Source of the DNA: Marsupella aquatica
Taxonomy: Eukaryota; Plantae; Marchantiophyta
Direction: 5' to 3'
DNA: 64,000 nucleotides
Assembly (NCBI GenBank): GCA_973895155.1
Contig: OZ316891.1
Location: 18,687,048-18,751,047, forward strand
The notes under the pieces are model-generated. The model did not search any database, had not been told where the DNA came from, and saw only the letters and a program-made list of their open reading frames with translations. Made by a program: the position numbers and the translations under genes. Below, piece after piece: positions 1 to 52,119 of this stretch (position 1 is the stretch's first letter; each line of letters starts with the position of its first letter).

Positions 1-1842
1 GTTACCAATCTGATTCTTAAATTGGGCTTTCCACTCCTTAAAAGTGGCAAAAATATCAGACTTGTTGTGGAGAAAGTAGATCCACACATACCTTGAGTAA
101 TCGTCTATGAACGTGATATAGTATAACCGTCCAGAGTGTGAGGGAGTAGGGGCTGGTCCCCACACATCACTATGTACATACTCAAATACCTCCTTGCTAG
201 TGTGAGTTCCAACTCCGAAGGGTTTCCTGTACTGCTTCCCAAGCATACAATGCTCACAGAAATCTAACTTCTAGACTGCAAATTAGAAATCAAACCTCTT
301 TTCAGAAGTATAGCCAAACCTTTTTCACTCATGTGACCTAGCCAAAAGTGCCACAGCCGGGCTGTTTCCTCATGAGATAAGGTTACATTGGCTTCATCAC
401 ATACTACTCTGCCCTCCAAAATATATAAATTTTTGTGCCTCTTTCCCTTCAACACAACCTTAGTACCGGTTGAAACCTGAATGACACCATTAGCAGAACT
501 CCACTGATGGCCACTTGCTTCTAACATTCCAAGTGAAATGAGATTTTTCATCATGCCAAGAATATGTCTCACATTCTGCACTGTTCTTACAACACCATCA
601 AACATTTGTAATCTCACAGATCCAAGTCCAACTACTTGGCATGGGATTCCATTTCCCATCAACACTGAACCGTTGGAAACCTTGTAAGAACTGAAAAACT
701 CTTTCCTATAGCAAATGTGAAAGGTACAAGCACTATCTAGTATCCAACCATCATCTTCCTGATGTGATACTACGTTGAGGGCAAAGTAATGGCATCATAA
801 AATGTCATCATCGAGTAAATCTACCTCATGTGCGTTGGATGCCGCATTAGCTGATGGGGTAGAGTCCTTTACTCGACAATCTCTCTTCATGTGGCCTGGC
901 TTGCCACATTTCCAACATGCGAGAGGCTTCCTCTCTTGCGATTTTCTTTTGGATTTAGATCTCCCCCATGTTGTAGATGTAAATCTGTTCTACCCATTCA
1001 TGCACTGCGCTGGTCTTCCATGATTCACGTTCAACGCAGTACCAGAAAAAGATGTTGTCTATGCTAGACCTAGCTTCTTCTGAGCATCATCAGACAATAG
1101 AGAGCTCACCACCTCATCGTACAAAATGGACTTCAGATTTCTGTACAAGAGCACTTGTTTCAAGCTAGCCTTGATAAGATGGCGGTAAGGACCTTAGCAG
1201 AAGCAAGGCCTTATCCTCATCTTCAACTCCCTTACCCAGGTTTGATAGATCCACCGCCAGGCTGTCAAACTCATCCAGGTGCTCCTGCAACTTGCTCCCT
1301 TCTTTGAGCCTGAGGCTCATCAAGAGAGACTTCTTGTACAGCCGGTTTGATGCATCTTCCCGGTAGTACTTCTCTCTGAGGGCCTTGAAGAGTGATGCAC
1401 AATCCGCATAATCATCCAGCTTCTTGATGATATGCAGCTTGAGGTAAAGCATCACCGCATTGACAACAATCACCTGCTCCTGTCTCCACTGCTTCATAGA
1501 AATATTCTCCTCTCCATCATACTGCTCTCGCATAGAGAGCAGATGATCTAAGCCCATGGCACGAAGAATACCCTTTACTTGCTTCTCCCATAGCAAGTAA
1601 TCAGTACGGCCGTCGTACTTCTCCACCTCAAACTTCACTCCTCCAAATCTTGCCATCTCTCTCTTCTTCCCAACTACCGACAGCTCTGGTAGTAGAACAA
1701 CTTCCTCCACTGCATGCCGCACCGGTGATGGTACCGGTGATACTTGTTCCTCCTCAGACTCTCCGTCTGACCATCGTGAACCTGAAGCTCCATCGACGTC
1801 GATTCTTCCAGTATTCTCCAGGGTATTCTCCAAGTCACTCAT
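1..1842 (-). mobile_element. Degenerate Ty1/copia LTR retrotransposon gag-pol (gag, zinc knuckle, protease, GAG-pre-integrase, start of integrase); continues beyond the window start
   Basis: gag KFEVEKYDGRTDYLLW...LLLLRSLPPSY (1165-1842); CWKCGKPGHMKRDC knuckle ~875-920; protease WILDSACTFH ~715-750; LWHFWLGHMSEKG; integrase VHSDVWGP...FIDDYSRYVW at 60-190. Internal stops and frameshifts. Confidence 0.95.
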
Positions 1843-1854
1843 ATGAGAAAATCA

Positions 1855-1876
1855 ATCACTATATTCATTAAAACTG
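1855..1876 (+). repeat. Left TIR (22 bp)
   Basis: Perfect inverted match to 17953-17974, with imperfect extension for ~12 more bp. Confidence 0.92.
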
Positions 1877-2324
1877 TACTTTTAAAAGTCCATAAGATGA
1901 ACCCTAAAGTTATTTTTTTTCAGGCCAAATTTCTATTAAAGCATTCCCAAAAGCTAATTTTTTTCAGCCCAAATATACACTTTTGAACGCCCAAAATTTT
2001 GTTTTTTTCACCCAAATGTTTAATAATAACTTAAATCATATATTCTAATTAATTTAAAAATTAGAGTAAATTTAATTTAGTCCAAAAATCAGAGGCCAAT
2101 ACCACTCAGACCATCTATAAATTCAAAAATATAGATGGTCATAAATCAAGGGTCAAAATGAGATTGACCCACTATATAATTATTAAATTGTCCAGTCCAG
2201 TGAGAGAGCCTCACACTAAGCATATATCCTAATTATTTACTTTATCCTACATGTTCAAAACATATCCTTTCAAGACATAATATGAATGTACAATTCAGGG
2301 TAGGCACTAGAGCAACCCTATCTC

Positions 2325-3380
2325 CTAATGATCAAGACAAAACTCATTTGAACAAGAAAGTCTGCTTCCTGATTTATCATAGCGGATGTCACGGTTGCAA
2401 GTATCTATCGCATGGTGGTTCTTAAACTTATTGGTGAGATCCCTAGTTCTGAGAACTTTCCAAATAAAATGCCTTCTATTTTGTGTATGAGGACCAGAAT
2501 AGTTGTCTCCAAGTATTACGTTTGCAGTTTCTTTGATCTCATCTGTGGCCAACGTCTCCAGTGGTGGGTAATGCTGCACCTCGTTCTTTCTGTCCCAAGG
2601 AATCTCTTCAGGAGTCACATCCAAGATGGTTCCAAACTCCCTATGGATACAACGACAATCTCCCCACTTCTGTTCCAAAAGAGCATAGATGGCAGCATGA
2701 TCCTCCTTGCTTGTTAATAAATTGAAAACAGACCACTTTGGATTGTTGACAGTGATATAATGTTGAACGCAGTAAGCCTTTCTCAATTTGCAAAGATACG
2801 GCCATAATATCTCGGGCAAAAAAGTGTCATTTGAAGTTGTGTGAGTAAATGGATTTGGAAACAATCCATTCACGTCATAATTCAAAAATGCCTTCAATGG
2901 AGAATCATCAATAAGAACTGTATTAGAAGCATCATATTTTTCTGGAAAACGGTCCCAAATGGTTTGCAAATTCTTCAGAAGTAAATTGGCCTTCCCATCT
3001 GTTATATCTGGCCTTTGGATGCAACTATCAAAGGTATCTTCTTGAGTAAAGACAAACTTGAACTTCTGTCGCTCCTCCTCAGTGAAAATCAACTCCATTA
3101 AGTCCATTGTTTTTGGCCTCCTTGCACAGGTCCAAATTGCGACGTCAAAAACCATGAAAGCTGCATATAGAAATTCGTGGAGGTATGGGCGCTCCACATA
3201 CATGAAATTAAACCCTCCACGTCTCCCCCAGTGCACACCACGTAAACTTGTCTGATTTCGCCATGGTCCTGAGCTTCTGGTCTTAATGCAATCCCAACAA
3301 ATCTTGTTAAGGTCAAGAACCAAGAGCTTTCGCCGGATCGGAGAGTGTAGTATTGGAGTGAATTCTGGAAACATTAACAT
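2325..3380 (-). CDS. FCP1/NIF-like HAD-superfamily phosphatase (transposon cargo)
   Basis: Intact 351-aa ORF; KLLVLDLN motif I, RPYLHEFL, VAIWT, LLKNLQTIW, NTVLIDDSPLK. Confidence 0.8.
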   Translation of the reverse strand: MLMFPEFTPILHSPIRRKLLVLDLNKICWDCIKTRSSGPWRNQTSLRGVHWGRRGGFNFMYVERPYLHEFLYAAFMVFDVAIWTCARRPKTMDLMELIFTEEERQKFKFVFTQEDTFDSCIQRPDITDGKANLLLKNLQTIWDRFPEKYDASNTVLIDDSPLKAFLNYDVNGLFPNPFTHTTSNDTFLPEILWPYLCKLRKAYCVQHYITVNNPKWSVFNLLTSKEDHAAIYALLEQKWGDCRCIHREFGTILDVTPEEIPWDRKNEVQHYPPLETLATDEIKETANVILGDNYSGPHTQNRRHFIWKVLRTRDLTNKFKNHHAIDTCNRDIRYDKSGSRLSCSNEFCLDH

Positions 3381-6367
3381 AAGCCCTTAGTCAATGCGAC
3401 TCAAAGTTTAAATTAGTTCGTGGACCCCCACCCTGTTTTTATTGGATTGAGATTGAAAGTGGATTGAGATTGAAAGTGGATAGTTATTGATACAAATAAA
3501 AAATGTGTTAAAAAGTAGACAGTTATTGATATAGATAAATATGTTTCCGACAATGGGTATCTTTATTGGGACTTGTCATTTATTTTTGCATGATAGAACA
3601 CATTGTTCTGAAATTGTTCAAGGGGTTCGACAGGATTGCAGCTCCTGTGAGGGAAATAGCATTGTTGGGGGCACTGGTGACTTTCGATTGGCTCAAGGGT
3701 GGGCAGACATCACCACTTACTCCTTGATTGACGTCGCCAATGCAAATCTATGTGTTTAACCACATATGTAGTACAGCATAAGAAAGTAGAAAATACAGAC
3801 GTGGCTATTGTTTGCATGGAGGAAGTGGAGACAAATAGTCCTCGTAGTTTGTCTTCGCGACACTGTTGTTTAAGACATTTTTATCGACTCAGACCCCACT
3901 CATTCCCATGTCAGTCTGGTATTCTCATTTTAGGCAACTCCAAGGTCAACTACTACTTGCCTGGTCGGTGTGTTCTTTGCGGACCAGAACTCCCCACATG
4001 AAACCAATTTCAATTAATGTATGAACCAAACGCAGCATAAACGAAATTTCTTTTATTTTAAGAAATAGTTCAGTTTGCCTGGCCTAGGAAACTTTGTGAC
4101 GGTCTAGTATCAGTACTCTGTGTCCCGGGTTGCAGTTCACCTATTGCTTCTGCCCTAGTCACTTCTTTTAAGAAAGCTTATAACAGAGACCAATTTCAAT
4201 TTTGACGAGTGTAAGAAGCGAAAAGAACATTCCCGACTCTGACAGGAGCAGTAGAGGGGGTTGATCTGGTTCCAAAAGTCCAAACTATTCAGAGGAAACT
4301 GAAGCGAATAAGCATCTCCAAAATGAAAATGGTGAGATGGCCACTGATTCCTCTATTGAAAAATCTGATAAGGTCGAGGTTTAGATTGTCTCTGCAACCG
4401 AGCAAGATAAAGCCGAAGAAGCGTGAATAATTTTGATGCCTAGAAACTACGGCCATCTCAAATAAGATTGCCCTCCCTGTTCAGAGCTTGAGCTGGATGC
4501 CCAAGAGCACAGTCAAGCCCTTAAGCAGAACAACTTGAGAACCAACATCCGAAGCACAGGCTACTCGACCAGCGCTAGGAGGTTCGTAAATTCCTAAATC
4601 CGTATAGCTATGAAGCCAAATCTGGAACATCTGATGATACCTCATAAATTCTCAATTAGAGGTCCAAGAAGCTCACGGCAGAAACCTAAAGCCTGAAACA
4701 TCTTGCGCACTGTGGAGGAACCCTCCCAGAATCTTTCAAAATCTCTCATCCATATTCGGACATAGAGTTAGTATTTGCTACTGGCTCCAGAACTCTGAAT
4801 CCTTAACGCTGACAGCGCTACGATCTCGGCTACGATCATATCCGGAAGCAACTGTCTGAGGGATCAAAAATTGAAGAAATGAAACAGAGGGGAAGCAATC
4901 TCTGGGAGCCGAAAGGAAAACATAAAGACAACCAGAAAAAGGAAGAAGCAAGGAAGAAGCAAAATGAGCGCCCGTGAAGGGCATTGGTGTCCGACATTCG
5001 ATCGAGAATCAAAAGAGAGACATCAAAATCAGAAGGATTCAGCAATGAAAGTTGACCTTGTTTGATCGAACTGCTTTTGCCTTTTTCTTCTGATCAGGTC
5101 GCTGCCTTTCCGCTCTTCTCTGCCCCAATCGTGTTTCTACAGCATTTTATATCTTCTTGTTCAATCCTTAATTTTCTCTTTAAATTTTCTGTTGTTCTCT
5201 GGATCCTCAGGGCGTTGTGTTAGTCTCTCTTTACACTTTCACTTCGCCATGGCCTCTTTTGATCTTTGTTTTGATTTCAGGTTCAAATCGCAGTCCTTCT
5301 CTTCCTGATTCGATCGTTTCGTTCTTCAGTTTCTTCTTATCAATTCTGTTTGCGATCATTGCTTTTCCTGCTTTTGGTCCTTATGAAATGAACTCTCTTC
5401 TGGTTTCTTTGTTATCGAATCTTCGATCGGGCAGCTTCTTTCTCACCTTCTCGTTTCTCTCAACATTGCGTGTGCACACATTCACCGCACCATCACCATC
5501 AAAATCAACAACGAGAATTCGTGCAGAGGTTGTGGCGCGGAGGAGCGCTCATTTTACAGTTTGGATTGCGGGCGGGATGGATTGTAGTGGACGTTAATTA
5601 CTTAACTGTTTCTAGTGACAAGTGCTTACTTTCGATTACACATTTAATTTTTTTATTACTTAATGGTTATTATTATTATTTAATGTTGTGCATTCCATTA
5701 TTTAGGGGTTGAAAAAACGGTTATTGTCTATCTCAACTTCAATACTTTGTTATCTAAAGGTAAATAATACGGTTAATTGTAAAAGAAGTTTACATGAATT
5801 TTTACGGCATGGCGTCCCTAGTTTTACCAAAATTCCGTCGCAAACACGAATGTGGGCATAATTTCATTGTGGAGACCAATTCGTTCCTGTTTGTTCCGGT
5901 TGTTGTTGACGTGGCATGCTATGGTGCCAGGAATTTTGGAAGGGACCTCTAGTGGGGTCCGTAACAATTACTACGGAAGAAAACTCTCAAAATTTGAAAT
6001 CAAACAAACTTTGTTATAGCATTTGAAGTAGAGAGGAACGACCCTGGAGTGACCCTCCTAGAAAAACATTAATTACATTCAATTGCCATTTTTTAGATCC
6101 AAAGTATACGTGGGTCAAACCCTTCCTCCATAGCAACGCTTTCCGAGGGAATGCCAACAAAATCCTTTGAGGAAGGAGATTCTACGACGGAACTTTGGTC
6201 TGTAAAAAAGTATATTATTACAAAGATAAAGCTTAGATTGTCATTAAAATACCAAGAACCAAAGAAAGGGCTAATAATTTCCAATGCTAAAATGCCCAAA
6301 TTCATCTATTGTTTGATCACCTAGAACACTCTGTATCTCGGAATTGATACCACTGGGAAGTTGCTCT

Positions 6368-9300
6368 TCAAAGGATGGGGGTGCAAAAACTGGGCTCAGT
6401 CTCAAGTTCAGTTTTTTGTAATCTGATTTTGCCATTATCTTTGGAGCATCGTCTAGTGATTCTATCATTCCAACCTTTGGTCCATTTCTCCATATAAAAT
6501 GAGTTGCAGGACGGGCTGTTTTCATATATCCAGTCCTGCCGATCTCGGATCCAGAATTTTGTGAAAATGAATACTACGGGGCTTCCTGTAGAAGCACTTG
6601 TAAAAACCAATTTAGTCTCTGATGAGCAATATAGAGGAGACAGGGGAGGATTTGAAGCACCTGCCTTCTCTTCTTCATTTGCAGCGGTCTCAGGTACTTG
6701 ACGATCATCCTCCTTTGCAAGCGCAATGTCTGACATTTCTCCCAATTCTACTGCGTCAATATTGCCTAGACCATCTGCGGTTGCCTTCCAATGTGCGTCC
6801 GATGTGGACGATGTAAGATCTGGGTCCGATTGGTGCATCCAATTCTCTACACCGACAAAGGGATTTCTTGGTGGGTCGCCCTCAGGTCGACCCACAACAT
6901 CAGCCAACCCCACACCAAAGTAGGGAATACCTACCACTTGTGTTCCACGTTCATTCAAATTTCGGGTGACCCTGTCGTCTGTGTCGTGACCCAATTCTCC
7001 TTTCTCAATATCATCTTCGCCCTGGTCTACGCCTTCTTTGGCACCAACATGCTCGGAAACCCCATCGCGGGCTCTACCAAATTTGGAACCGCCCATCCAG
7101 TCACTCATTATGGAAGGAACTTTCTTGCAGAGAACCCTTCCATATGCCTGAGTGAAATCATATTCATCCTCAGTGTCTGAATATGCAAAGCATTCTCTGA
7201 AACACAACAATGACACCTTCATAACCTGTCCTCCCGAGAAAAAGTCAAGTATAGTCTCCCCTTCAGCTGAAAAAAATTCAATAATACTCTGCAGCATACA
7301 TTTTGGCTTAGCGTGAATATTCACAAAGCCACCTCTACTTCCCACCATCTCAAACATGGGAGCCTTTCGTAAGAAATCTCCAATGTGAAATGCCGAAGTT
7401 GACTCAGTCTCTGTCTCCTTACTTGTCTTACTCTTATTCTTATCTCGCTTCTCCGTCTTGTCTTCCACTTGGAAATCAGGGTCGATCGCCGAATTGTAAG
7501 AAAATTGGCAATTAAATCCAGGCCTGAACACTTGCTTCCAATCAAATTTCTCCTCAGTGGTGATTCCTGCAAAGATTATCTCCTCCATACCACAACTGAA
7601 AAGTAAGCCCTCTGGAACTGGTGTATCACTCCATCGATAGCTCCCGTAGTCGACGTGGATGTCCATTCCCTTTTCATGTTGCAATTTCCTAAGGGCACTC
7701 AAAATGTTTGCAGCAAGTGGCCCCGGATGCACAGTCATGACAACAACAATTGTTGGATTTCTTGGAAGATCCACAATGTATTGCAGTAATGCAATAATTT
7801 CAGCATCGGTCCAAACATGTTGTCGGAGCCTACTGAAGTCAACAATGGCAAGAGGACACAAAGGCGAAGGCTCTTGTAGCATTTCCGGCACGGTCGTCTT
7901 CATCAAATTCTCACTAAAAAATGTCAAGAAAGGCTCCATGCGAGAACGACCAATCCCACCAAATTCTTTACAATACAACCCATCTAGTCTGACCATCAGA
8001 CTTTGTGGGAAACTCTCCTTGACCACATTCTTCTTCAATGAATTATTGAGGTAAACCTCACCCGCTGCTCTCCTCAATTTTGTCATCTCAAGCTCAGATT
8101 TCAAGGAAGGCAACAATATCACCAGAGACTCCCAAGATGTGCCAATAGGAAACTTCTCACGATACTTTTCCACGAAATAGCCAATAATGATTGTTCTCAA
8201 TTTGGACATTATCTTGATTGTAAGGGCCAAGTCTCCCATTGCGACAAGCTCTGATTTGTTGGTGATATCCTTCTTCAGCAAGACAAGCTCCTCTTCAACG
8301 TCCTTCAAGATCTCAATTATCTGTTTGCTACTAATCTCTCCTTCAAAGCATCGAAAGGTACCGGGAGTGATCAATTTTGGGGGTCTTGGCCCTCCATACC
8401 CACCAGCCCCGTCTTGGAGCTTCCCACTCAACCATTTTGCACACACGTTCCGCCATAATTCAAAGAGCTCATCTTTGGCAAAAAGTAACCAATAAATGCT
8501 CTTTAGGCTTGACTTCCCCATTGTAACCTTTGCCAGGGCAAACCAATCCTGCATATCCAATGGACTTGACATTAGTTTTAGTGTACAATGCATATGTTAG
8601 AAAATTTATACCTATGTTTGAAACAGGCTAAGCCGCCTCGCCCCAAGGGCGTGGCGAACCTCTACATCTAACCGCAATTGACTGAAACGGAACTAGGGAA
8701 TTATTCTTAGAGAGACTAGTCTAGGTTGCCTCGCCCTGAGGGCGAGGCAAATATTTGCTTTAATCTTCTAACCAAGGAAAACAAGAAAAGGCAGCCTCGC
8801 CCTTGGGGCGAGGCAAACCTCTACCATTGACAATCTTTAAACAAAGCGGATCAAGAATAGTTTGCGTTGCTCCAACATGTACCTGATAGTTTTTCCTGTC
8901 TGTATTTTGATTGGTCCCAACCCCTGGACGCGGCGGTTTCCCGCACTCCTCAAACTGCCTTCGTGCATGAACAATAGTCTCTAAAAAACAAGACTTAAAT
9001 TGCATAGTATCATTGACAACATTCGATAAACTTGAATGCTCAACCAAAATTGTCTTCGGAGTGAGGTCAGATAGGATCCTTGCTTTCCTATACTTTAGTT
9101 TGTTGGCAAGATCTGTCAGCTTGGCGTCAGTCTCGGCCCACCCTTGGATCCATTGGGCAGCTCTTGCAGAATGCTGGCCACTGATGGCAAGGAATTGGAT
9201 CTCATGCTTCTTCACACCAATCAAAAACTCTTTCCTATCCTGAGGTGTGTTGTCATAATGAAGCAACTGTTTAGTGCTCTCCCGATACAGAATCAAATTA

Positions 9301-11343
9301 GCAACTTGTGGTTCCTGTCCAAGGTTTTTCATCATAGACTTTGATATCTCCATTGCATGCGAAAGATTGAACATTCGATATACGAAAACGGCTGATGGCG
9401 GATTAATACTTTTTACAGGAATATCAAAAACTTCGCGGATGCCAAAAGTATAATACTGCTCAATATTACGCAAAACCTCTTGGCCTTTGAGCACATCATC
9501 TTCTTTGGGTCCTTCTGTCGGACACATATCATCCTCTGGATGCAAGACAAAGTTTGAAGTTGACCCTGACATTGGTTTTGATTTTGCAACCTTTGCCTTC
9601 TTTGTCTGCTTCTTTTGGGGGCCCTCATCATCTTCATTTTTTTAGCCATCTTCTTACGGCGTGAACTCCCAGATTGTTTCTCTTGTTGAACAACCGGCTC
9701 TTGAAGCTTTCGTTTCTTCTCTGTCTTTGATTGCGCACTTCTTTCCACTATCTTCTTTCTCTCCTTTGCCTTATGCTTGCTTCTTTTTTCTTCATCTCTG
9801 AAATCCACGTCCGGCACGCGGCCTCTTGAAACTCTGGACAAAAAATGAAACTCTTGTCGATTGCTTGCTCGTATGAAAAATGTGCCTTATCAATCATCCT
9901 TTGAACTATCCAAGTAGACGGAGGGTCCACACTGTCCGCATTGTCATGCATGTGCTTCTTTACGTAGAGAAATCCAAACACTAGGTCAACTCCACTTATT
10001 TGAGAACGCATCTTCTCAAACATCTGATCAATTGTTACTCCATCTGGGAAGAATCCCATATCAACTACACTTATCTCCAATCGAGCCATCCACTCAACAT
10101 TCAGTAAAATTGAGTAGAGTTTTATTGGCACTAGAAGTCTCATCCACTGAGATTTCTCATTGGACTCAACAATAATCGTTGCATTGCGGTTGTTGTCCAT
10201 GTTCACAAGGACGACTGGACCTAGAGTAACAATTGTCTTGCGGTCATTCAATTGACTTGTGAGGCCCTTGAAACAAATCAAGAGACTGCCTTCCGCCGAC
10301 ACCCCAACTTCTAGTGCCCATCTAAATCCTGGAGTATCTTGGTCAGGGAAAACAAAGTCCTTGATATCCTCGTCCATAATATTTAACTCCGGCTTCTCAA
10401 GATTTTTTCCTGGTAAGAAACATTGAAAAAAAATGGTCAGCATCATATTTTTAACATTGACATGTGGAAAACTTTCAAGGTGCCTCGCCCTTGGGGCGAG
10501 GCGACAAATAGAAGATTGCAAAATCTTCTTTGCTCCTAGTGCAATTAGCCCTGCCACCTCATCCAAGCAATCAAACATTATTTAGGAATGCAGACGACAT
10601 CGCCTCGCCCCAAGGGCGAGGCAACTTCTAGGAAAGCAAACAACATTTAGGAATGCAGACAACATCGCCTCGCCCCAAGGGCGAGGCAACTTCTGGAAAG
10701 CAGACAACATTTAGGAATGCAGAGGACATCGCCTCGCCCTTGGGGCGAGGCAACTTCTGGAAAGCAGACAACATTTAGGAATGCAGAGGACATCGCCTCG
10801 CCCCAAGGGCGAGGCAACTTCTGGGAAAGCAGACAACATTTAGGAATGTAGAGGACATCGCCTCGCCCCAAGGGCGAGGCAACTTCTGGGAATGCAGACT
10901 ACATTTGAGGAATGCAAACGACATCGCCTCGCCCCAAGAGCGAGGCAAAAAATAGAATATAGCTAAAGATCCTTTATTAATGTAAGATACAAGGTCCAAT
11001 ACGCCTTTGGAGCAACAAGAAATCTAGAATGAAGTAGACGTCGCCTCGACCTTGGGGCGAGGCGACTGCAAAGGAATATAGAAATTTTCCTAATAAGAAG
11101 TTTGAAATCCAAATTAAAGTAAAGTTGCCTCGCCCTTAGGGCAAGGCAAGAAGTTGAAGCAGGTGGTGCCTTACGTGGAAAAGTTAACTGGGCTTTCTTT
11201 GACGCCTCCAACGCATTGTTAACCAATTTTTGGACATCCGGGTCTTCAGGGTCATATTCATACACAGAGTTATAATTGAAGTTCAATGACTCTTGAGAAC
11301 TGGCGGAGGTGGTGGAAGCTTCAGAACTGGAGGAAGTAGACAT
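6368..11343 (-). CDS. Multi-exon cargo gene: ParB/Srx-like domain plus N4C/N6A (beta-class) DNA methyltransferase-like domain; probably disrupted by one or two frame changes
   Basis: Predicted ATG 11343; phase-consistent GT-AG introns 10410-11174 and 8549-8882; FLAISGQHSARAA (ParB/DGQHR-like); HAKPKCMLQSIIEFFSAEGETILDFFSGG...RECFAY (N6_N4_Mtase C-terminal, motif I-like). Frame changes near 9840 (possibly an intron) and the T7 run at 9637-9643. 3' end uncertain, may extend to ~6093. Confidence 0.65.
10581..10948. repeat. Tandem array, six ~64-65-bp units, each with palindrome GCCTCGCCC-NNN-GGGCGAGGC
   Basis: Units start at 10581, 10646, 10710, 10774, 10839, 10904; dispersed palindrome copies at 8635, 8728, 8794, 10482, 11043, 11127. 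Confidence 0.95.
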
Positions 11344-12508
11344 TGTAAGGGGCGAGTGAGATTTAAGATGACACGTGGCAGCAATGGAGAATGCCATAGG
11401 CTGCAAGAGGGCACTAACAGGCAAACAATGATCGAGGGAGCGACCCAAAAGGGAAGGGAGCAAGGCAGAAATAAAAGCCTTAGAGCGAGGCGGAAAACAA
11501 ATCCCAAGAGCGAGGCAAAAACAAAAGCCCTAGAGCGAGGCAAGAGGGAGGCAAGGAGTGAGGAGACGAGAGAGGAGGCAAGAGGGAGGCAAGGAAATGA
11601 GGCCTCAAGCGCAAGGCCTGCCTTCCTATACCCCCTACGAGCGAGGAGTCCGAGGAGGCAAGGATCCGAGAGGGTACGGAGGCATCAATGCGCGCCAATG
11701 ATGGAGACCCACCTCGGTGCATGTGATCGTGAGTCACCGATGGTGTGACCACTCACGACCACTCGCGACTCACCTACCAATTTTAAACTTCCGAGCTGTC
11801 AGCGGTGTGTGCTCGCAACTCACCTATCACTCGTGAGTGATTGGCTGACACCCTATCCGATGTCTACTTGTGTGCTGGGTGCGTGCCTCATCCACCCATG
11901 CCCGATCTGGTGGTGTCCACTCGTGTGCTGGGTAATGTGTGGGCTTTTTGCCTCTCAAACTGAGTATAGACCTCCCACAATCCATTTTTTGGTTCATTGT
12001 CATTTAGACAGTGATTGGTACGATCACTGACTCTCCTCTGTCCGAGTGCCTTGTTTAGGTCCGCATGGTTGAATGCAAGGTTTAGTAAGGGCACTAGTGA
12101 GCACTGTGGTGCCAAGAGTTACAATGTTGGCATCCAAGGTACCCATTTAGCTTGTACAAGGGTGGACAGAGAGATATATTGTGGAGCAGGTTAGTGATTT
12201 TATTTATTTATCTTAGAAGTACTAGCTCAACTACATCTAATTCAATACCTTTAAGCCAAACCTAGATTAAGATTTACACATTAGGTTCTAGATCATATAT
12301 TTTACTCATTCTAGACCTTTATCCACAGTCTAGCATGTGTAGAACTTACTGTACCCCTTTATGTGATTACTAACATAGTTTCTAGAAGTGGGTCGGAATT
12401 ATTTCGTGCCGACCTGACTATGTCATCTTAACTAGCATTTTAAACTGGTATATAAAAGCATAAGCAAGATAGTTTCACAAATAGTTTTGACATAATTTCA
12501 ACTTAATA

Positions 12509-12835
12509 GTTGGAGTAGGGTCGAAATAATTCCGACCCAACTTATCAATGTTTAGTCAATTAAATCATTTTAAGACATATTGTTGGAGGAGGGTCGAAAT
12601 AATTCCGACCCGACTTGTAAATGTTTAGTCAATTCAATCATTTTAAGACATATTGTTGGAAGAGGGTCAAAATAATTCCGACCCAACTTGTAAATGTTTA
12701 GTCAATTCAATCATTTCAAGACATATTGTTGGAGGAGGGTCGAAATAATTCCGACCCGACTTGTAAATGTTTAGTCAATTCAATCATTTCAAGACATAAT
12801 GTTGGAGGAGGGTCGAAATAATTCCGACCCGGCTT
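12509..12835. repeat. Tandem array, 73-bp period, five copies of quasi-palindrome GGGTCGAAATAATTCCGACCC
   Basis: Palindromes start at 12518, 12591, 12664, 12737, 12810; one inverted degenerate copy at 12390. Confidence 0.95.
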
Positions 12836-12962
12836 GAATGTATTTAGGGTTTTGAGTGATTTTACAATATTTTTTGGAGGAGAGTCCAGATTTTGAAACA
12901 TGATTGTAACATGGGGAACTTAACAATTTCTAACTTTATTTGAATACAGATAGTCCGCTATC

Positions 12963-15900
12963 ATGATCAATTTTACACGAGGGGATGAAGTGTCATTGGT
13001 GATCGATGGATTTGAAACGGCAATTGGGATAGTTCAAAAGGTTGACCCCCAGGATACTATACAGAACATTTGTCTAGGGGACAATCGAATTGGGGTATTG
13101 ATCGAAAAGTGTTTTGATGGATCGCGTCAACTTCCATTTCCTTCGCCCAAATTTTCTACATTGGCTGAGGCAATTGACTCCTGCGTGATTTGGGATTGTG
13201 CATTGGCATACTTGAGGTCATCAACTCAGCACCGAAGAATCAATGTCGATGATTTCTCTTTGGCTGGAGATGCTGGAAATGATAAATCCAAAATTGATGC
13301 AAGGGTTGAAGAGGACGTGTTCAAGGAAGGAGATGAAGTTCAGATGTTCATTTTTGATCGATCAGTTGGTTGCAAATGGAGTCGTTTTCAAGACAAATCC
13401 GATGGATATTTGTCATACTGAAACACTCGGGGTTGGTCGCATCAGTATAAGAATATCTGATATTGTTAAGGGAAATCAAAAATTGCCATACTCGCACCCT
13501 GGTGCTGATACAATAGAAGAGGCCTTGCATACCTGGGTTATCTGGGATGTTGCCCATGTTTCTAGAAAGGGCACTCTACGAGATTTTGGCGTGTTTGGTA
13601 GTTCAAATATTTTCAATGATCTTCCATTAAAAGATTTTACACTACGTTCCAACTGGATGGCGAAGGAGGTTGATTTGTATGACGCTTCTCGTTGTCGAAA
13701 GGTTGCAACAGGTGTTATCACGGTCACATTTGAAACAGGTGCCGTTGACGATGAACTTCTTGGTGCAGATCATGTTGGTGTTGCTGTTGTGAATATCAAT
13801 GAACCCGGATTATTTCCAAATATCCGTGTTGGTACCCCTGGCTTGGTGAGGTGGGAAATCAAATCCCTTCTATTGATTTCGTCTCAAAGGTTTCTTGGGG
13901 ATATCCTTGAGGAAGTTTCAGAGAAGTGGATGGAGTCGGGTCAAACTAAGGGCGATCCGGATTCAGATGGTGATGGTAAACCTACAAAAAGACCATACAA
14001 TTTCATTAGGAGGACAAAAGTTGATCTTGAGGAGAGGAAGAAAAGGCATTTGGAGTCGAGGGCACTTTTGAAAATTAACGAGGAGTCCATTGATTCCATC
14101 CAAAGAGAAGGTTGTTGCAAGCTGAAGTGTTGCTTGAACATGCCCAGGGAGGACTTAGAGGCAATGAGGAGGGAATACCATGGAATGTCAAGTGACAACA
14201 AAACAAGTCACATCTTTAGTCTCTTTGGGTGTAGAGAGGAGCAAGTCAAGAGAAAGGGATTTTTTGTTCTAAAGGGACGTGTGGTTTGTAAAGATGCATT
14301 TATTAAAATGCATGGGTTCAGTACAACAAAGTACTATGACTACAAAAATCAATACGAAGCTGGTTGCACAATTGGTTTCCATGGAAATCAGGGACAACGG
14401 AAGACACGATCAAGCACTTTGCACGCTCGCGCTTTGTTGGAGTCCATTTTAATCCAAAATGGGGAACCAATGCCACATCTTCCCTATGGTGGGTCCAACG
14501 GCACTGACACTATTGAATATCGGCTCCCATCTTGTTTTACTAAGAAGGAGATTTTCCAAGAGGTGTTTACCAAGATGGAATTAGATGGGTTTGCTAAGGT
14601 TACTGAAGTTACTATGTACAACATCTGGAAAAACTCATTTGATAATTTTGACTTTCACAAGGGAAGTGCATTTGCCAAGTGCACATTTTGCACTAAGTTC
14701 AAAGATCAATTGATGCGGGAGAAGAGAAAAAAAGAGCGTGCAGAGATTGAAGAGAAAAGAGCGCGACATCTTCGTGAACAAATGTCAAGAAGATATGTTT
14801 ACTATGCTCATAGGGTTCTTGCAAAGAAGGATCCTCAAAACTATCTTTGCATTATTCACGATAAGATGGATCAAGCCAAGACTTGGATCCCCAGGTTGGT
14901 CCCCACTCCAAAATCCCTCTCTGGTAGTGGTCAGCCTTTGCCTATTGCCCCTGGGCCCTAAGTGTTACTAATACAGGGAGGACGTGCGAACATCGCAAGG
15001 GTGTTTTTAATGTAATGCAAACTAATTTTTATAATAGTTTTTAAAGTAGGCAACATCCCTGTATATATATTCAGCACAATATTAGTAATAAGGCTCTTAT
15101 CAAATACATGTCAGATTAATCTTATGCAAGGGTACCCAAAATGCCAAGTACACATGTCACTATATGGTTGGCACACATGTCATCACTTTACTTGCGCACA
15201 TGTTCATATAGTAAATCAGATATTTAATTATTTGTCGTCATAAGGCAAGTTTGGTTTCGTGGGCTTTAGGAACACTGAGAGGATAGTGCAGCCATGCTTG
15301 TCTGTATACTACAGGAAGAACTATAATTCTCTAGTACTAATTTTGTTTAACTATATAAAATATGTACCCTAAACAAAGGCGTAACATACAAGTCCCCTAT
15401 GCAAAATAAAGTCTTATCTATTTCAGTATGATATTTGCAATTTTAAAAATTCAAGGATGTTTTCAATTCCTTGAAAAACTATATTATAATTTACAAAAGG
15501 ATAAAATTTAATAGGAAAAGTTAATATTTTTACATTAACAAGGGGATTTTTTTTGTGAACAAAAATATTAAGAAGGGGTACATGGGGGGTGTCTGTTCTC
15601 AGGGGGGTTCACTTTATATAGTAAGAGTGAGGGCCCAGGGCCTATTGCTCTTACTGGGATGTTAACCCATGGAAGAGATCCTGGAGTGTATGCACATTTC
15701 AGTTTGACTGGACTTTGGCCTAGAGATGCAGACTTTACCGTGACATCTTTGGCCAAATGCCTCCGAGATTTGGAAGATTACACAGGAGACAAAACTGGAG
15801 ACCTTCTTGAGGGATTGAATTGGAATGCAACTAGGCCAATATTTCAGTCCCTTCTAGACTTTGAAGCATTTCTGGCCGGTTACTTGGAACCCAAAAATGT

Positions 15901-17382
15901 TTCAATTGTTCGATTTCAAGGCATTGAAGATGGTCAGGAGACTAAAAAGTCAAGCACAGTGGATGTTGGTTCTAAGGATGATCCTGAGACTACTAGGGGC
16001 TCTTTCAAGCCCTTACCAAGGCACCTAACGTTGCAGATGGACAATTCAGGGAAAGATAACAAAAATCAATATGTGATGACATTTTGCACTGAGCTTGTTA
16101 GCAGGGGGTGTTTGAAACTGTGCAAATGTCATTCCTCATGGTTGGCCACACCCATGAAGACGTGGATGCATTATTTTCTCAAGTATCCAAACAGGTCAGA
16201 TACAAAGAGGTTGCTACCCTCTTGGGGTTGATGGCTGAGGTTTGGGAGTGTGAAAGCATTCATCGTGTACCACGATTGATTCAAGAGGTTGCATCTTACA
16301 AGGAGTATTCGAAAACTTTCCAGGTGAAAGAGATAGAAGGTCACTCAAAACCAGTGGCATTTCTTTTCTCCATGAGGGATAATGTGCCAGTGTATCAATA
16401 TAAAGCACATGTCAAGCAACCTTGGCTTCCGGCAATGGGGAGGTCCATTTGGAGAACTGATCCCATCACAAATGCGCTCATTTTACCGGAAGGCCAACCA
16501 TTTGCAAAACCTATATCTGGGGATGTACAAAAGAAGGCTGGAGAAATCATCCCATTCCTTAATCGCTATATTGATTTCTTGAAGAAAAGTTCTAAGGATG
16601 AGACCTCTGCAGCATATAAAGAGAGATTTCCTCTGGTCAAATATTGGGAGAATCTTGTGCAAGCACTGTCCGAGGAACTTACAATAGAAGGGGAGGGGGA
16701 AAGACATTTGCCATTGACAACTGATTTTTGGCCAAAGACTAACCATGGTACAGGTTACAAGATGATTTTGGGGACATCTCAGCCGTCAAGTGAACCTTCT
16801 CAAAATCCAGAGATGATGGACCTTCAAAATGAGTACATGGAAGAGATGGAAGATCAAGCTGCACCCTTTGTTGGTGCACGACAAGAGCGAGAACCTGCAC
16901 GTTGGATTCCTCTACAAGATATTCAAGAAGGTCACTTTGTATTTTTACGTCCAGAGGATGAATGGGAACAGGAAAATGGCAAAGGGCGTTTCTGGTTGGT
17001 TCGAGCTTTGGGTGGTGTGGATCCAAACCATGAGGTTCCCTCAACAGATTTGCAACATATTGAAGGGTCTTCTTCAACGTCTGTTGAGAGCATTTCTCTT
17101 AGGAATGCTCCTATGTTCCAAGTACAATGGTGGAGGCCTAAACATGGTAAGCATGATGCAAAGGATGATGTTCGATATGAACGTTGCTTTCAAACCACTA
17201 AGACTTGGGAGCTGGATCCTGGGTTTGACAATGTTACTCAAAGTTGGCAGTTTGCAAATTCTGCAATGTATGGGTTTAAGTCAGGTGCTAAAGAACAAAA
17301 TATTATGGATAGAGGTTTGACAATTCCTAAGAATGTTTTGAAAACTCTCAAAATTTACATGGAAGGTATAATTGATGAGTAG
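12963..17382 (+). pseudogene. Sola1-like/DUF7869-type DDD transposase, ~1238 aa when repaired
   Basis: IIHDKMDQAK, LQMDNSGKDNKN, FLMVGHTHEDVDALFS; Cys motifs CCKLKCC and KCTFC..H. Removing a GATC duplication (13356-13363) and the MITE plus one TSD copy (700 bp), and adding one G at 16104-16108, gives one 3717-bp frame. Confidence 0.85.
14949..15640. mobile_element. 692-bp non-autonomous TIR element (MITE), 8-bp TSD, inserted in the transposase
   Basis: CCTATTGC at 14941-14948 and 15641-15648; imperfect ~22-bp TIR starting CCCTGGGCCCT; AT-rich non-coding interior; removal restores PLPIALTGMLTHG. Confidence 0.93.
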
Positions 17383-17952
17383 ATTGATAGAACTCGTAGG
17401 TTACAAGTCTCCACTCAAATGACTTGTGATTAAGAGGGTCGAGTTGATTTCCATGCGTTGGTCTAAAGTGAGAGAACAAGACAATCAAATTAATACTCTA
17501 TGATCTCTCAAAGCTATTGAATGGACTTTCTTATAATTATTATTTTATTTGTCTTAGTATATTTTAATTCTAGAAAATGATGCCATTTCATTCCTTCTAG
17601 TAGGTTGGATATCATCCTAGTTAACTTTGTCTAGACACTATAGTCATTCCATTGTATTGGTGCTTAGTTAGATATCTTACTCAAGCTAAATGTTTTGAAT
17701 ATAGATGCTATCCAAGCTTATATGTTATTACTAGATTCTATCTATTTTCCAACCAAATGAACACTTTTATCACCCAAATGTTTTTTAATATCATCCAATT
17801 TAATATTTTACTTTCCCAAAATTTCATTTTTTTGTCCCCAAATTTACATTTAATGATGCTTGAATTTTCATTTTTCATCTTCCAAATTTACAATTTTCAT
17901 GCCTAAAACTATGTTTTTAAATCGCCAAATTTCCCTATATCCTTTATAATTT

Positions 17953-17974
17953 CAGTTTTAATGAATATAGTGAT
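17953..17974 (-). repeat. Right TIR (22 bp)
   Basis: CAGTTTTAATGAATATAGTGAT is the reverse complement of the left TIR. Confidence 0.92.
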
Positions 17975-19350
17975 ATCACAAAAATTTGTCTTTTCTCAAA
18001 ACTTCTCATAAAACTCAGAACTCAACACCGCCGCGTAGCCCACGTAGCTAGGAGTCCAAAACTGAAAACAAAATTGAAAATAAACTTTGACAAAAAAGTT
18101 ATTCAGATTTCGGTCGGTGTGGGTAAAACCATGGAAAACTCCCTCGTTTTGACCACCTCCAAGAATCTCCGAAATGTGAATGGGCAATCGATGTCAAAAT
18201 TGCCAATGGAGTGCTGTACCGCATAGCTAACTCGAATAGCTACCACCTTTCCGAAAACAACTAGAAAAAGTTACCATTTTCTGGTACGAATTTTTGTCGT
18301 ACGGCCGAAAACACGCTCTCTGGTTTTTGAGAGTATTCTCCGCGCAGTACAGCAGGGCTCACAGGGGGCTGTTCCCCCTGTCGAAGCGGTTAAAACGGAG
18401 GGTCACAAGGCCTGGGATGCGGCACAACCAATGAGGAGGAGAGAAAAAAATGAGAAAAAAAGGCACTTTAAAGGGGTCTTAAAGCCCCTGGAAAAAATGC
18501 GCAAATTCGCGCGTATTCGTGGCCAAAAACGCGTATAAAGGCCAAAAAAAGGGTTTAAATGCACGTATTTTTGTGTATTCGGGCCGTACAAGGGCATTTT
18601 TTGCCGTATTTGCGCCAAAAAATGCACGTTTTCGCGCTTAAAGGGGTGTGGGGGGCCGGGGCGTATGGCGAAGCTGGTTTGTCGGGGTGTGAAGGTATAC
18701 GGGCCGTATGGGGGCAAAACAATGCCCTAAACTAACCTAAAAATGTGCCAAAAAATGACACAAAGGTCGTGTTACAAATCTCAGCCGCCTCCGCTTCGGT
18801 TTCCAATGAGAAAAGTGATGACCGCCGACATGAAAATGTTGTCAAATTGCACCGACACGTTTGCAGCTCCACCAGAGAAGAAAACCTCCGCCGCGTCACA
18901 CTCTCTCCGCGTCAAGAGCCTACCCCAAACTCAAAACAATCACCTTACCACGATCTCTCTGTTGAGCCTCAGCACTTCAAGTTTCCTCCATCGAATTGAA
19001 CGCAACGATGAGAAACCTCGTTCAGGCAAAAACAAACTCCATAGCTTGCCAAAAAACCAGAAAACAACTTTCACTCGTCATGAATCACTTGGTCCACGTT
19101 CAGGAGCAAGTCAGTTACCGAAATGATCAGCTCGTCTCAATCTACAAGTGGAGCAACACCATGTGACGCCTCGTGCACCGCAAAGCTCACACCAACGAGA
19201 AAACGAACTCTGGTCCCTCCACCAAAAAACCGTCGAACACGAAACTCCACGAAAAAATGATTTCCCCGATCACTTCTCACTCATAAATCCGATCGATGAT
19301 TTCTAACCGCCATTAGAAAGCCCTCACAACGATCTATCCGATGAGTCCCC
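17975..19350 (-). mobile_element. Probable 5' leader region of the interrupted copia element
   Basis: Contiguous with the gag ATG once the TSD-bounded insertion is removed; non-coding with GC-rich patches. No LTR or PBS identified, so the far boundary is a guess. Confidence 0.4.
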
Positions 19351-25380: not shown

Positions 25381-26426
25381 AAAAAAAAAACAGTCTCTCT
25401 CTGCCTCTTCTCTTCTTCGGACGGTACTAAGGGCCAGGTTCCATGGGCCAGGGGTAGGGAGTACGGACACTCCCTCTGACATTAAGTAGGGCCCAAATAC
25501 ACCATATGCCAAGGTGTATACAGTATTTTAAAAGTATAAATTTTGACTCAGGAGCCAATGAGAATGCCTTGTACTGTTTTTATATAGGGGCAGGGGGTAC
25601 CCCTGAAGTTTAAGAGGGAGTGTGAGGGAAAATCATACTCCTTGATACAGTATTTGTACACCCCTCAGTCCCTGGAAAAGCTGCAATCTTATTGGCTTAA
25701 AAATTCTGACAGCATCCATACTCCTTACTCCCAGCCCCATCCCCATGGAACCTAACCCTAAACGTCTCGACAGGCGTTTCTTGCCTCTTTTCTCTTGTGC
25801 GACGTTTCTATTTGTTTCGACGAAATTCAGCGGCGAAAGGAAGGTGCAAGGCATTCAACGACGAGATCGAATGGAATCGTTCAACTGAAGTCAGGTACGA
25901 TGCTTGCCTTTCACGTTTGCTTCCTTAGACTCTCGACTCTCTACTCTCCGCAATGGACGTCCGCACGGCAAGTACGCAGGCTGTGTGGAGCAGGTGACCG
26001 TTGGCTTGTCTAGGGCGGGGTGATGTAGGGTAAATGCTCACGCTGAGTGATTGAGGACTGGAGGTTTGCGCTCCGGGCCGTCAGGTTGACGCGGTATTGC
26101 ATTAATTTGTTGCCTTCAGAAAGAAAGTGCGATAAAAACTCGATAGATTTTATGAAAGCATGATTCCGGGATAGAGCTTGCGTGATCGCTTTTTCGTTGA
26201 AGGCTAATAGTAGGGTTACGGACGTTTTGGAAAGCAGAATGCAGAGTTAGGAGGTGAAGGAGACAGACCGTGCGGATGAAGCTTGTGCGAGTAGGGCGTG
26301 TTTGATCGAAGGGATTGAAGGGGAGCGAAACTTGCTTTGGCTGGCGGAGATTAGGGCTGCAACGAGGAGGAGACTTGATCGATCGATTGATTGGTTGATT
26401 GAATTGTGGCCGCAGTAAGCGAAGAG

Positions 26427-26936
26427 ATGAGCGGGTTCATAGGGAGCGTCGGCAGTTACCTTTTCACTTCCAGCGCCAAGAGAGGGATCGATTCCGTCAG
26501 CACCGATGTCGATTCAGTGGGGACGGCGGTCGGGAACTTCTTCAGCAGAATGAAAGGGAAGACTCAGAAAGCTCTGCCAGATCTCCTTTTTGAGTACGAT
26601 CTTCCACGAGGGCTGTTTCCCAAGAACGCACTGAACTACGAATTTGACGAGACCACCGGCCAGCTCGTCGTCTACCTCCCCTTCGCAAGCGAGGTCGGAT
26701 ACAGAGACCAGTCCATTTTGAGGTTCTCCAAAAAGGTTACCGCCATTCTTAGACCAGGGAGCCTCACGGACATTGAAGGGCTCAAAACAAAGATCATCTT
26801 CTGGGTCAAAGTCACTGTTGTATCCGGGGAAGACAAAGCAGCGAACAAACTCTATTTCCTCACCACCATAAAAAAAACGAGGCCGTTCGACGTCTACAAC
26901 TATCTCCGAGATGGATTCGAAATCGACGCATATTGA
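26427..26936 (+). CDS. DUF538 family protein
   Basis: KMKGKTQKALPDLLFEYDLPRGLFPKN..YEFDE..G.L.VYLP..EVGYRDQSILRF..LTDIEGLKTK; first ATG at 26427. Confidence 0.9.
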   Translation: MSGFIGSVGSYLFTSSAKRGIDSVSTDVDSVGTAVGNFFSRMKGKTQKALPDLLFEYDLPRGLFPKNALNYEFDETTGQLVVYLPFASEVGYRDQSILRFSKKVTAILRPGSLTDIEGLKTKIIFWVKVTVVSGEDKAANKLYFLTTIKKTRPFDVYNYLRDGFEIDAY

Positions 26937-27726
26937 GTTTGAGATGAGCTCAGGGTTGGATCTCACAGCTCTAAATCTTAGAACTAAGGCGCTTTAAATT
27001 TCAAGGTGCTTAAGCAAGATTGAGACAGGACTCAAGATTCCGTTGAGTTCAGTCCGTAGGTTTGTGTGTGTTTGTGCTTCTGAGTGAAATCCCACCCTTC
27101 TTCTATGAGAATGAACTAGACTGAAACAGGCACATTAGTTAAGAATGCTGAGATTGGAACTGTGATTCTCTACAGCTTATTTTAATTCAAACAGTTTACA
27201 GAGTTATGTCTCTCGCCTTCAGCTAACTCCCTTACCACTTTCAGGGCACCTTCGATACATGTGTCGTGTCACCCACTTCTAGAGAAGTATTATTTTTTAT
27301 TTTTTAAATATATTTTAAAAGATGGGCAGAGGCCAGCGATAGAGTAGTTGATTTTACGAGTATATTGGTGCTCCTTCCTTGATCCTGAGACGGCCTGTTT
27401 TGGGTAGCACGAAGGTACTTTTGTTCTTAGCTCAGAATTTGAAGTGATACAGGTCGAACTTTCTACGGTCGCTTCTAGGGTCGGAGTGTCGTGTCATAGC
27501 TTCTGAGGTATATCTGCCCGAGGAAATAGAAATCGGTGGCATTACCTGCGGTTTAAGTGAAGAAGCGAAGCAGACCTTTCAGCATCGGTGTATCCCCAGC
27601 AAGACGTGTGCCACTTGTAAGCATTAACGATTCGGAGTCCGTGATCAGGAGGTGTGAACTCGGGGTCCTGCCTGGAAGGCTTTCGGCAGTAGGTCTTCGC
27701 TGAAGGGTTTCAATTCGGTAGAAATA

Positions 27727-28917
27727 ATGGGAGGTATTGAAGGCAGCAGCACCTGTGGCCACCTGCTGGATCCAAGCACACTCGACCCATTCGCTTTGGA
27801 TGAGCTCAAGAGACGTGGGCCGAAGTATGGTATAACTTTACCGCTGAATTACGCTTCTTCCATACTTTCCCGTTTAGGGGAGAAAGAGCTCGAGAGCTAC
27901 AAGGTATCGTCCCTGGGTTACAATAATCGCATCTACTTTGTGAGAGCCAAATCAGGTGCTGAATATGTGATCAAGATATGCGGGCGGTACTGGAAGAGAG
28001 TCAAGACCGAGACAGAGGTTGTGGGTCTCTTCCTTGCCAGCACACTGTCGTCCGTCCCTGCGCCAAGGATTCTGGCGTGGGATTCTAAGGGAGAGGAATT
28101 CGGTGTGGAATACACCGTGATGAGGAAGCTCGAAGGCGTACGACTAGAGGATGTGTGGAATGATATGTCCTTCGACAAGAGGTGGAGTGTAGTGGGCCAG
28201 CTTGCTGAACTTGTTGTCTCGTACAGGTCTCAGACGGGACGCTTAGCAGCCTCTATGCCGGAAGGCAAGATTGGCAATTTCGTGATTCGCGGAGGAGATG
28301 GATGCCGATTAGGGGAGATGGAGTCTGTGGATTTTGAAGTTGGACCTACTTTGGAAGGGCTGGGGCCATGGTCGAGCTATACAGCTTATCTGAAATCGCA
28401 ACTTGAAGTGAAAATTGAGAGTGTGCGGAAAGATCCGAGGATGGAAGCTATGAAGGTCTTGCTGCCGATAGTGGAGGCTCTCTTGGAAACTCTGGATACA
28501 GGGGAAGAGATCCCAGATTCGCGGCAGTTCGTATTCACTCATGGGGACCTCAATATTCAAAACCTGCTTATCACTTTCATCGACGATCTTCCCAAGATCA
28601 CTGCTGTATTGGATTGGGAGTGGTCAGGTATGTTCCCAGCAGAAGAGGAGTTTTTTTGCTCGTTTGAATTCATTCTCGACAATTCAGGAGACGGCACCAA
28701 CGAGCGTGACCAACTGCAAGCGCACTTTTTTGACATCCTCGAAGATGGAGGTGCAGACACACCTCGCACTCTGCCGTACTACTGGCAGCGTAAGTACCTC
28801 TATGATCTGAGAGAAAACCTCTTCCCATGGCACATTCGAGATTGCGACGATGTTGACAAAACTATCGAGCAGGCTGTAGTAGACGTGCAGCAACTCCTTC
28901 GGAATTTGAGGACTTAG
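27727..28917 (+). CDS. Aminoglycoside phosphotransferase (APH)/choline-kinase-like protein, intronless
   Basis: GYNNRIY, YVIK, VPAPRILAWD, FTHGDLNIQNLLI, ITAVLDWEWSG. Confidence 0.88.
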   Translation: MGGIEGSSTCGHLLDPSTLDPFALDELKRRGPKYGITLPLNYASSILSRLGEKELESYKVSSLGYNNRIYFVRAKSGAEYVIKICGRYWKRVKTETEVVGLFLASTLSSVPAPRILAWDSKGEEFGVEYTVMRKLEGVRLEDVWNDMSFDKRWSVVGQLAELVVSYRSQTGRLAASMPEGKIGNFVIRGGDGCRLGEMESVDFEVGPTLEGLGPWSSYTAYLKSQLEVKIESVRKDPRMEAMKVLLPIVEALLETLDTGEEIPDSRQFVFTHGDLNIQNLLITFIDDLPKITAVLDWEWSGMFPAEEEFFCSFEFILDNSGDGTNERDQLQAHFFDILEDGGADTPRTLPYYWQRKYLYDLRENLFPWHIRDCDDVDKTIEQAVVDVQQLLRNLRT

Positions 28918-51965: not shown

Positions 51966-52119
51966 TGCATCAGAAGGGAACACTCGTGCAACTCTAAAGA
52001 GACTAGACTCCAAACGATCACGCTTCCTTGCACATCATGGTCCTGAATGAACCTTCCATTGTATATTGCACTACCAAAGGACAGAATTCTCCTAATACCT
52101 CTGGAAGTTCTCTCTTTGG

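Follow-up and report, generated by a model that had tools for sequence, protein, structure and literature searches.

Sola transposons are characterised by a 4-bp target-site duplication (TSD) and by terminal inverted repeats (TIRs) of 11-1124 bp; some exceed 15 kb, and Sola is present in Physcomitrella, according to the available passages of PMC10741241. For the brown alga Ectocarpus, the accessible passages of PMC12477816 and its supplement describe Sola1-1_Ec32, a 21.5-kb element whose opposite strand carries a gene for a 1104-aa protein with ParB-like and N4C/N6A DNA methyltransferase (MTase) parts, whose 4-bp TSD is biased to end in A and whose best blastp hit is Sola1-1_PPa; self-binding and self-modification were proposed for it. 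The Plavaka (EnSpm) elements of Bostrychia are, in the published passages at hand of bioRxiv 10.1101/2025.02.11.637652, DDE transposons of 17-19 kb with several accessory genes (PAG1-3). They encode a PF01555 methylase and a ParB-like protein, and the latter is proposed to bind tandem inverted repeats of the element. Here we describe a 16.1-kb transposon at positions 1855-17974 of a 64-kb window (the whole stretch analysed; position 1 is its first letter and all coordinates refer to it) of contig OZ316891.1 of the liverwort Marsupella aquatica. It very probably represents a cargo-bearing, Sola-like family, with a transposase gene on the plus strand and two accessory genes on the minus strand: cargo 1, which joins a candidate ParB-like domain to an MTase fold, and cargo 2, a HAD phosphatase-like gene. 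As far as the cited passages describe them, it shares with Sola1-1_Ec32 the giant size, the 4-bp TSD, the opposite-strand ParB-like/MTase fusion and the nested insertions common in the Ectocarpus type, and with Plavaka the build of a giant DNA transposon with multiple accessory genes, a ParB-like gene, a methylase and inverted-repeat arrays. The core design was already reported in seaweeds in 2025, and the element extends a known kind of transposon to land plants.

The boundaries of the element are well defined. Inverted-repeat comparison of the window bore out the perfect 22-bp TIRs that an earlier note on this DNA had placed 16.1 kb apart: positions 1855-1876 and 17953-17974 are identical over 22 bp and, extended to 32 bp (left TIR 1855-1886, plus strand; right TIR 17943-17974, minus strand), agree at 91%, which lies within the range given for Sola; by chance, a stretch of 64 kb should hold about 2e-4 such pairs. 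ATCA stands on both sides (1851-1854 and 17975-17978, plus strand). The insertion interrupts a host copia element on the minus strand, matched by its gag, Pol_BBD and gag_pre-integrase domains at 264-1850, whose 5' part resumes beyond 17978; its gag ATG (Retrotran_gag_2, E 3.6e-18) lies at 1842-1840, minus strand, 8 bases from the TSD, as the note had read it. We compared the locus with contigs from four of eight listed public sequencing runs (three organism labels, A, B and C, and three studies; one of the four runs may be the source of the window itself). Uninterrupted copia copies, whose comparison the note had suggested, are present in these contigs, with joints 1854 to 17989, 1854 to 17999 and 1525 to 18457. 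Between 1854 and 17999 the joint holds 20 letters in run X2, against 21 in the X3 contig listed; between 1854 and 17989 it holds 10 letters in X3. Between the right ATCA and these two positions the window holds 20 and 10 letters, the matching sequence running from 17979 onward, and ATCA is present once at the joints. Only a 4-bp TSD fits these lengths. Furthermore, one X5 contig begins exactly at 1855 and one X2 contig terminates exactly at 17974. This confirms positions 1855-17974 as one cut-and-paste element with TIRs and a 4-bp ATCA TSD.

The transposase gene (12963-17382, plus strand, ~1240 aa) starts with an ATG at 12963 and encodes three N-terminal modules, a Cys-rich region, a DUF7869 core and a C-terminal extension; it has frameshifts near 13356 and 16105 and is split by a miniature inverted-repeat transposable element (MITE). 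DUF7869, which we take to be tied to Sola, is matched by both 3' open reading frames (ORFs) of the gene and by 16 of the 17 aligned transposase rows. The motifs HD-K-D, D-N-S and H-T-H-E-D are conserved in all full-length aligned rows and in the window pieces; judged from the alignment, these three acidic motifs are the DDD triad of Sola, with the individual residues assigned by an analogy that we presume to hold. The note's reading of a Sola-like transposase is supported. Among the 15 longer homologues, four are named Riccia sorocarpa and two Branchiostoma. The three N-terminal modules resemble each other, PF26133 is precomputed for 7 of the 15 homologues, and we label the modules TNP1-like partly by assumption. 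The ATCA target, seen at a single site (n=1), departs from the AWWT preference of Sola1 in insects (PMC3845634) and fits the bias of the Ectocarpus Sola1-1 towards sites ending in A. The C-terminal part of the protein (16900-17380) is a conserved aromatic-rich beta domain that by eye resembles a BAH/Tudor reader and is not found in the Branchiostoma homologues.

Nearly the whole element is covered by contigs under all three organism labels, and the note's idea of a multi-gene mobile unit is supported by the similar depth of its genes. In run X1 the depth of the longest contig is 515 over the NIF region of cargo 2, 480 over the MTase, 474 over the ParB-like exon, 421 over exon 1 of cargo 1 and 509 over the transposase. 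Since the transposase and both cargo genes have similar depth, both cargo genes appear to move together with the transposon family. Scattered X1 contigs elsewhere have a depth of 12-21; if this represents single-copy sequence, a few tens of element copies would be present, with the limit that contig depth is distinct from copy number. Over 5214 bases, the X1 element contigs show 46 differences from the window, and the family is young, with ~1% divergence among copies. In X5, which has a different organism label, depth is 21-56 and divergence 2.5-8% among the contigs listed over the element.

The window copy itself is not intact. A 2550-bp insertion (3416-5965), flanked by a duplicated AATTA (5 bp) and with short inverted termini, lies inside the predicted intron of cargo 2 and is missing in other copies, as seen from the joint 3410 to 5963 in all four runs and from a drop in depth. 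A 691-bp MITE (14949-15639), with a 9-bp duplication and inverted ends of 10-11 bp, splits the transposase gene; it is Mutator-like judged by TSD length and is likewise missing elsewhere (joint 14939 to 15640, 4/4 runs). Without these two insertions the element is ~12.9 kb long. In addition, there are five frameshifts, near 6569, 9638, 9776, 13356 and 16105. Among the rows listed, other copies differ from the window at 6569, 9776 and 13356 in all four runs and at 9638 in one of four; three of the five lie in or beside single-base runs, where assembly error is possible. Because of the two nested insertions and the five frameshifts, several of them without counterpart in other copies, the window copy is probably dead. 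The 2550-bp insertion has no long ORF and a 76% copy at 58088-58267; its end on the 5966 side is a high-copy repeat, for which X1 gives 50 diverse loose ends at position 5964.

Cargo 1 is predicted to consist of three exons on the minus strand that join in frame and encode ~1320 aa: exon 1 (11175-11343), whose in-frame GT-AG splice is a prediction, exon 2 (8883-10409) and exon 3 (6271-8548), separated by the GT-AG introns 1 (10410-11174, 765 bp) and 2 (8549-8882, 334 bp). Exon 2, with frameshifts near 9776 and 9638, covers an N-terminal beta domain with a weak PH-like appearance, a basic linker and a ParB/DUF3723-like domain, and exon 3, with the frameshift at 6569, covers a helical region, a beta-class N6A/N4C MTase fold, an acidic linker and a conserved C-terminal domain. 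Compared with PH-superfamily folds by VIA-align, the first domain scored Z 5-6.4, below the noise level of the tool. The junction of exons 2 and 3 has its match in P0002, an annotated protein of Calypogeia fissa that begins in the ParB-like tail and continues into the MTase, and four cargo 1 homologues stop at the same exon border; thus the fusion is not peculiar to the window copy. The exon 2 homologues P0007-P0010 are 43-73% identical, and the cargo 1 family overall spans 30-73% identity. The arginine patch of ParB for cytidine triphosphate has the form GxxRxxA; at its place all seven rows covering the domain carry an invariant S-G-Q-H-S, with the Arg missing there. DUF3723 is presumably ParB-like and a common Starship cargo. 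Of the ParB-methyltransferase fusion proposed by the note, the in-frame join and the MTase fold hold, while the ParB identity of the exon 2 domain, suggested by a language-model match and by motif order, is a lead only.

The MTase part matches M.RsrI with E 8.6e-6, and its predicted model (mean predicted local distance difference test score, pLDDT, of 49, higher in the N-terminal half) matches MboIIA, PvuII and CcrM in Foldseek with E<1e-3. Motifs X and I stand at the C-terminal end of a permuted Rossmann fold, an order that points to the beta class of N6A/N4C enzymes. Neither DFFSGGQ (motif I, the loop on the S-adenosylmethionine (SAM) side) nor the K-P in motif X varies among the seven sequences. 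The catalytic motif IV, [DNS]PP[YFW], is found in none of the seven cargo 1-family sequences; the strand expected to bear it ends in D-[FL]-x-R, with the register read manually. Since motif IV is absent in every homologue examined, the DNA-modification machinery that the note had suspected is doubtful. The searches for relatives with gene context gave one contig among 135 metagenome pattern matches (L001, 1.8 kb, without neighbours), 0/40 and 0/250 viral contigs and 0/34 prokaryotic genomes. At 211-1644, L001 encodes a relative at 32% identity with the same D-F-x-R and DFFSGGQ and one internal stop. A precedent for MTase domains carried by transposable elements and likely inactive is given by the DIRS1 retrotransposons in the consulted passages of PMC4738411.

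Cargo 2 encodes in its main exon (2325-3364, minus strand) a NIF/UBLCP1-like HAD domain. With a 22-nt first coding exon predicted from splice signals (6110-6131, minus strand), it would form a 353-aa frame without internal stops; from cargo 1 to the NIF exon, no fitting splice donor was seen by eye. The NIF domain matches with E 9e-17 and 61.7 bits, above the Pfam cut-off of 21.8, TIGR02245 matches with E 2.5e-14, under its cut-off, and the closest PDB match is UBLCP1 (3shq, E 1.7e-9), which agrees with the note's description of a HAD phosphatase-like gene. Motif I of NIF/FCP1-like HAD enzymes has the form DxDx(T/V). In the window copy it reads D-L-N-K, with the first Asp retained and Asn in place of the second, a departure from DxD that makes phosphatase activity of cargo 2 uncertain.

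The element contains palindromes of two types. Palindrome A, GCCTCGCCC-N3-GGGCGAGGC (21 bp), has 12 sites in the window, all inside the element, and none in 100 shuffles; nine lie in intron 1 of cargo 1, where a 65-bp tandem array accounts for six, and three in intron 2. Repeats of 25 bp and 11 bp with palindrome A half-sites are located just upstream of cargo 1 (11458-11595). Palindrome B has the same 9-3-9-bp spacing and a TCG...CGA core; six sites lie upstream of the transposase in a 73-bp tandem array of 4.5 copies and one outlier (12390-12836), and a degenerate copy at 2150-2170 is weak, fitting a loose pattern and not found at 3 mismatches. A/T-rich subterminal repeats (families D9 and D15) with 44-bp spacing occupy 1902-2030, with similar ones at 17819-17895. 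The note had the transposase on the plus and the cargo on the minus strand, transcribed divergently from a central repeat-rich region; the divergent arrangement from 11343-12963 is correct, with the correction that all 12 GC-rich palindromes are intronic and that, of the repeat arrays, only the 73-bp array lies between the divergent genes. Tandem amplification explains much of the palindrome count. Palindrome A also occurs in unrelated contexts of both introns, as would be expected of a protein-binding site. Rfam gave 0 hits. The observed/expected CpG ratio is 0.31-0.62 in element ORFs versus 0.79-1.05 in two nearby host ORFs, which fits long-term 5-methylcytosine (5mC); the CpGs of the palindromes are intact at 23 of 24 positions, which in a young copy is no evidence of protection.

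With moderate confidence, we read the locus as a defective copy of a Sola-like transposon, 16.1 kb long and multi-copy, that takes its accessory genes along and whose cargo 1 likely binds the element's own palindromes and keeps the element active or shielded; for the self-binding helper role taken by itself, we consider the case evenly balanced. The DDD transposase of intact copies would bind the TIRs and move the whole unit by cut-and-paste. Cargo 1, expressed divergently from the central region shared with the transposase, would bind the 9-3-9-bp palindromes in dimeric form, in the manner of ParB on parS, and its binding could leave the element open to transcription or shielded from 5mC. As the SAM-side loop is kept and the DPPY motif is missing, the MTase fold would more likely grip or flip bases, or bind SAM or DNA, than write N6-methyladenine (6mA) or N4-methylcytosine (4mC). 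More speculatively, the NIF/UBLCP1-like domain may bind or dephosphorylate a nuclear phosphoprotein such as the tail of RNA polymerase II. A bolder and rather unlikely extension is that bryophyte Sola elements carry a parS/ParB-like self-recognition system, in which a clamp would load on their own intronic palindromes, with the D-F-x-R MTase fold and a domain like phosphatases of the polymerase C-terminal domain shielding the element from 5mC. If true, plants would have a second anti-silencing system, independent of VANDAL and common to algae and other eukaryotes.

Several observations weigh against the proposed self-binding unit. No contig in the four runs spans the element, a further complete copy flanked by a TSD of its own was not found among them, and the multi-copy state is read from contig depth, which is not copy number. 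The empty-site joints, which derive from copia copies that have diverged, are short-sided (21-27 letters); hence their lengths count as evidence and their letters do not. The two cargo loci of C. fissa lie on different chromosomes, and neither is linked to a transposase by accession adjacency. The ParB-like part has no hit in Pfam, PHROGs, NCBIfam or PADLOC, its predicted model has a pLDDT <50 and no Foldseek match, and in the Atlas the homologue P0010 is placed with DUF3723 clusters at 0.96 (193/256 features shared), above ParB_N at 0.90, with no useful family for the window's own piece. By hhalign and MAFFT against three phage enzymes, D-F-S-R is not confidently placed on DPPY. Furthermore, with two distinct palindromes, either could be a transposase site.

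Other readings of the same data have to be considered. CACTA and TAGTG are located 2 bp inside the element ends and, with the TNP1-like modules (Transposase_23 in 1/17 rows, E 0.097), would suit a CACTA/EnSpm element at 1857-17972 with a 2-bp AT TSD; a chance pile of nested elements within a short TIR pair would be a further possibility. The run contigs start and end at 1855 and 17974, not at the CACTA boundaries, with a 2-bp duplication the empty-site joints should measure 26 and 16 letters, against the observed 20/21 and 10, the transposase core is DUF7869 with no match to Transposase_21 (TnpD) in the window ORFs and the 17 aligned rows, and depth is even over the parts of the element, in contrast to the true nested insertion. 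We regard this explanation as highly improbable, and CACTA termini with a 2-3-bp TSD are largely refuted by the empty-site lengths and contig ends.

Regarding cargo 1, an active amino-MTase with a non-canonical site, writing 6mA/4mC on its own element after ParB-type targeting as for Sola1-1_Ec32, is rather unlikely. In its favour, all elements of the beta-class fold are present in order, conservation of motifs X and I is strong, an invariant D-x-x-R ends the motif IV strand in the 7/7 aligned sequences and in L001, and a bacterial-type 4mC writer is in use in Marchantia; the Marchantia enzymes have TSPPY, whereas cargo 1 lacks [DNS]PP[YFW] throughout, the acidic residue that follows motif I in the three phage enzymes aligns near S/A in cargo 1, and the DIRS1 MTases set the precedent of inactivity. 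We give still less credit to the view that the cargo genes are carried along passively, with no part in the life cycle of the element, and that the palindromes serve as transposase sites, are very small inserted repeats or form hairpins in the pre-mRNA. In its favour, folding of intron 1 is much stronger than that of shuffled sequences (z -15), as it would be for any palindrome array, and palindrome B occurs upstream of the transposase and, degenerate, near the left end. Against this view, the long ORF of cargo 1 belongs to a conserved family (30-73% identity) whose exon ends are conserved as well, unlike a patchwork of host fragments, a gene of this type is paired with Sola1 in a brown alga, and the frameshifts at 6569 and 9776 are missing in other copies.

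The transposon with self-binding cargo that we favour can be set against its relatives as far as the cited passages describe them. The fusion protein has 1104 aa in Sola1-1_Ec32 and ~1320 aa here, and the brown algal element has AACCG termini and a 282-bp imperfect TIR, whereas the liverwort element has ATCAC termini and a TIR of 22-32 bp; the passages on Sola1-1_Ec32 make no mention of a NIF/HAD gene or intronic palindromes, both present here, and do not state what motif IV of the algal protein looks like. Plavaka differs in its EnSpm transposase and in having two separate fusion genes, one of ParB with a 2-oxoglutarate oxygenase and one of the methylase with SET, and its repeats lie beside the gene, whereas palindrome A lies inside the cargo 1 introns. 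The Physcomitrella Sola elements share the bryophyte host, the DDD transposase and the 4-bp TSD, and their Repbase entries may already have such a layout. M.RsrI, M.MboIIA, M.PvuII and CcrM share fold, motif order and motifs X and I with cargo 1, which differs from them by the missing DPPY/SPPY, the ParB-like fusion and the intron-containing eukaryotic gene. By analogy, the proposed cargo 1 role resembles VANDAL/VANC of eudicot Mutator-like elements, where an accessory protein binds motif arrays in its own element; the superfamily is different and the protein unrelated. The function of VANC has been demonstrated, and that of cargo 1 is a proposal.

In the literature searched, Repbase reports lying outside its coverage, no report of cargo of this kind in land plants was found. 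The note's claim of an undescribed architecture therefore holds for plant transposable elements as far as searched and fails for the core layout, published for Sola1-1_Ec32, and for ParB with repeats, published for Plavaka. New here are the land-plant host, the NIF phosphatase-like gene, the intronic palindromes and the family-wide degenerate active site. In their published passages, the algal papers propose ParB-type self-binding and marking without tests; a young family and sharply defined candidate sites make the self-binding proposal testable near the genetic model Marchantia, in a liverwort lineage that silences strongly by 5mC and is known to have a 4mC writer of bacterial type. Whether such proteins write a mark or only read and protect DNA is a question to which the loss of motif IV across the family is directly relevant.

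Outside the element, the window contains further genes, assigned by eye. On the plus strand, a DUF538-like ORF (26403-26936) appears to be an ordinary plant gene, and an intronless 419-aa ORF (27658-28917) resembles aminoglycoside-phosphotransferase-type kinases. On the minus strand are pyruvate-decarboxylase-like exons (41497-44063), likewise seemingly of an ordinary plant gene, and an ORF (50775-52034) whose middle resembles the C-terminal domain of MinC of the plastid-division type, followed by membrane helices. Moreover, two minus-strand ORFs at 60808-62127 resemble a fungal-type membrane-bound O-acyltransferase, for which horizontal transfer is possible.

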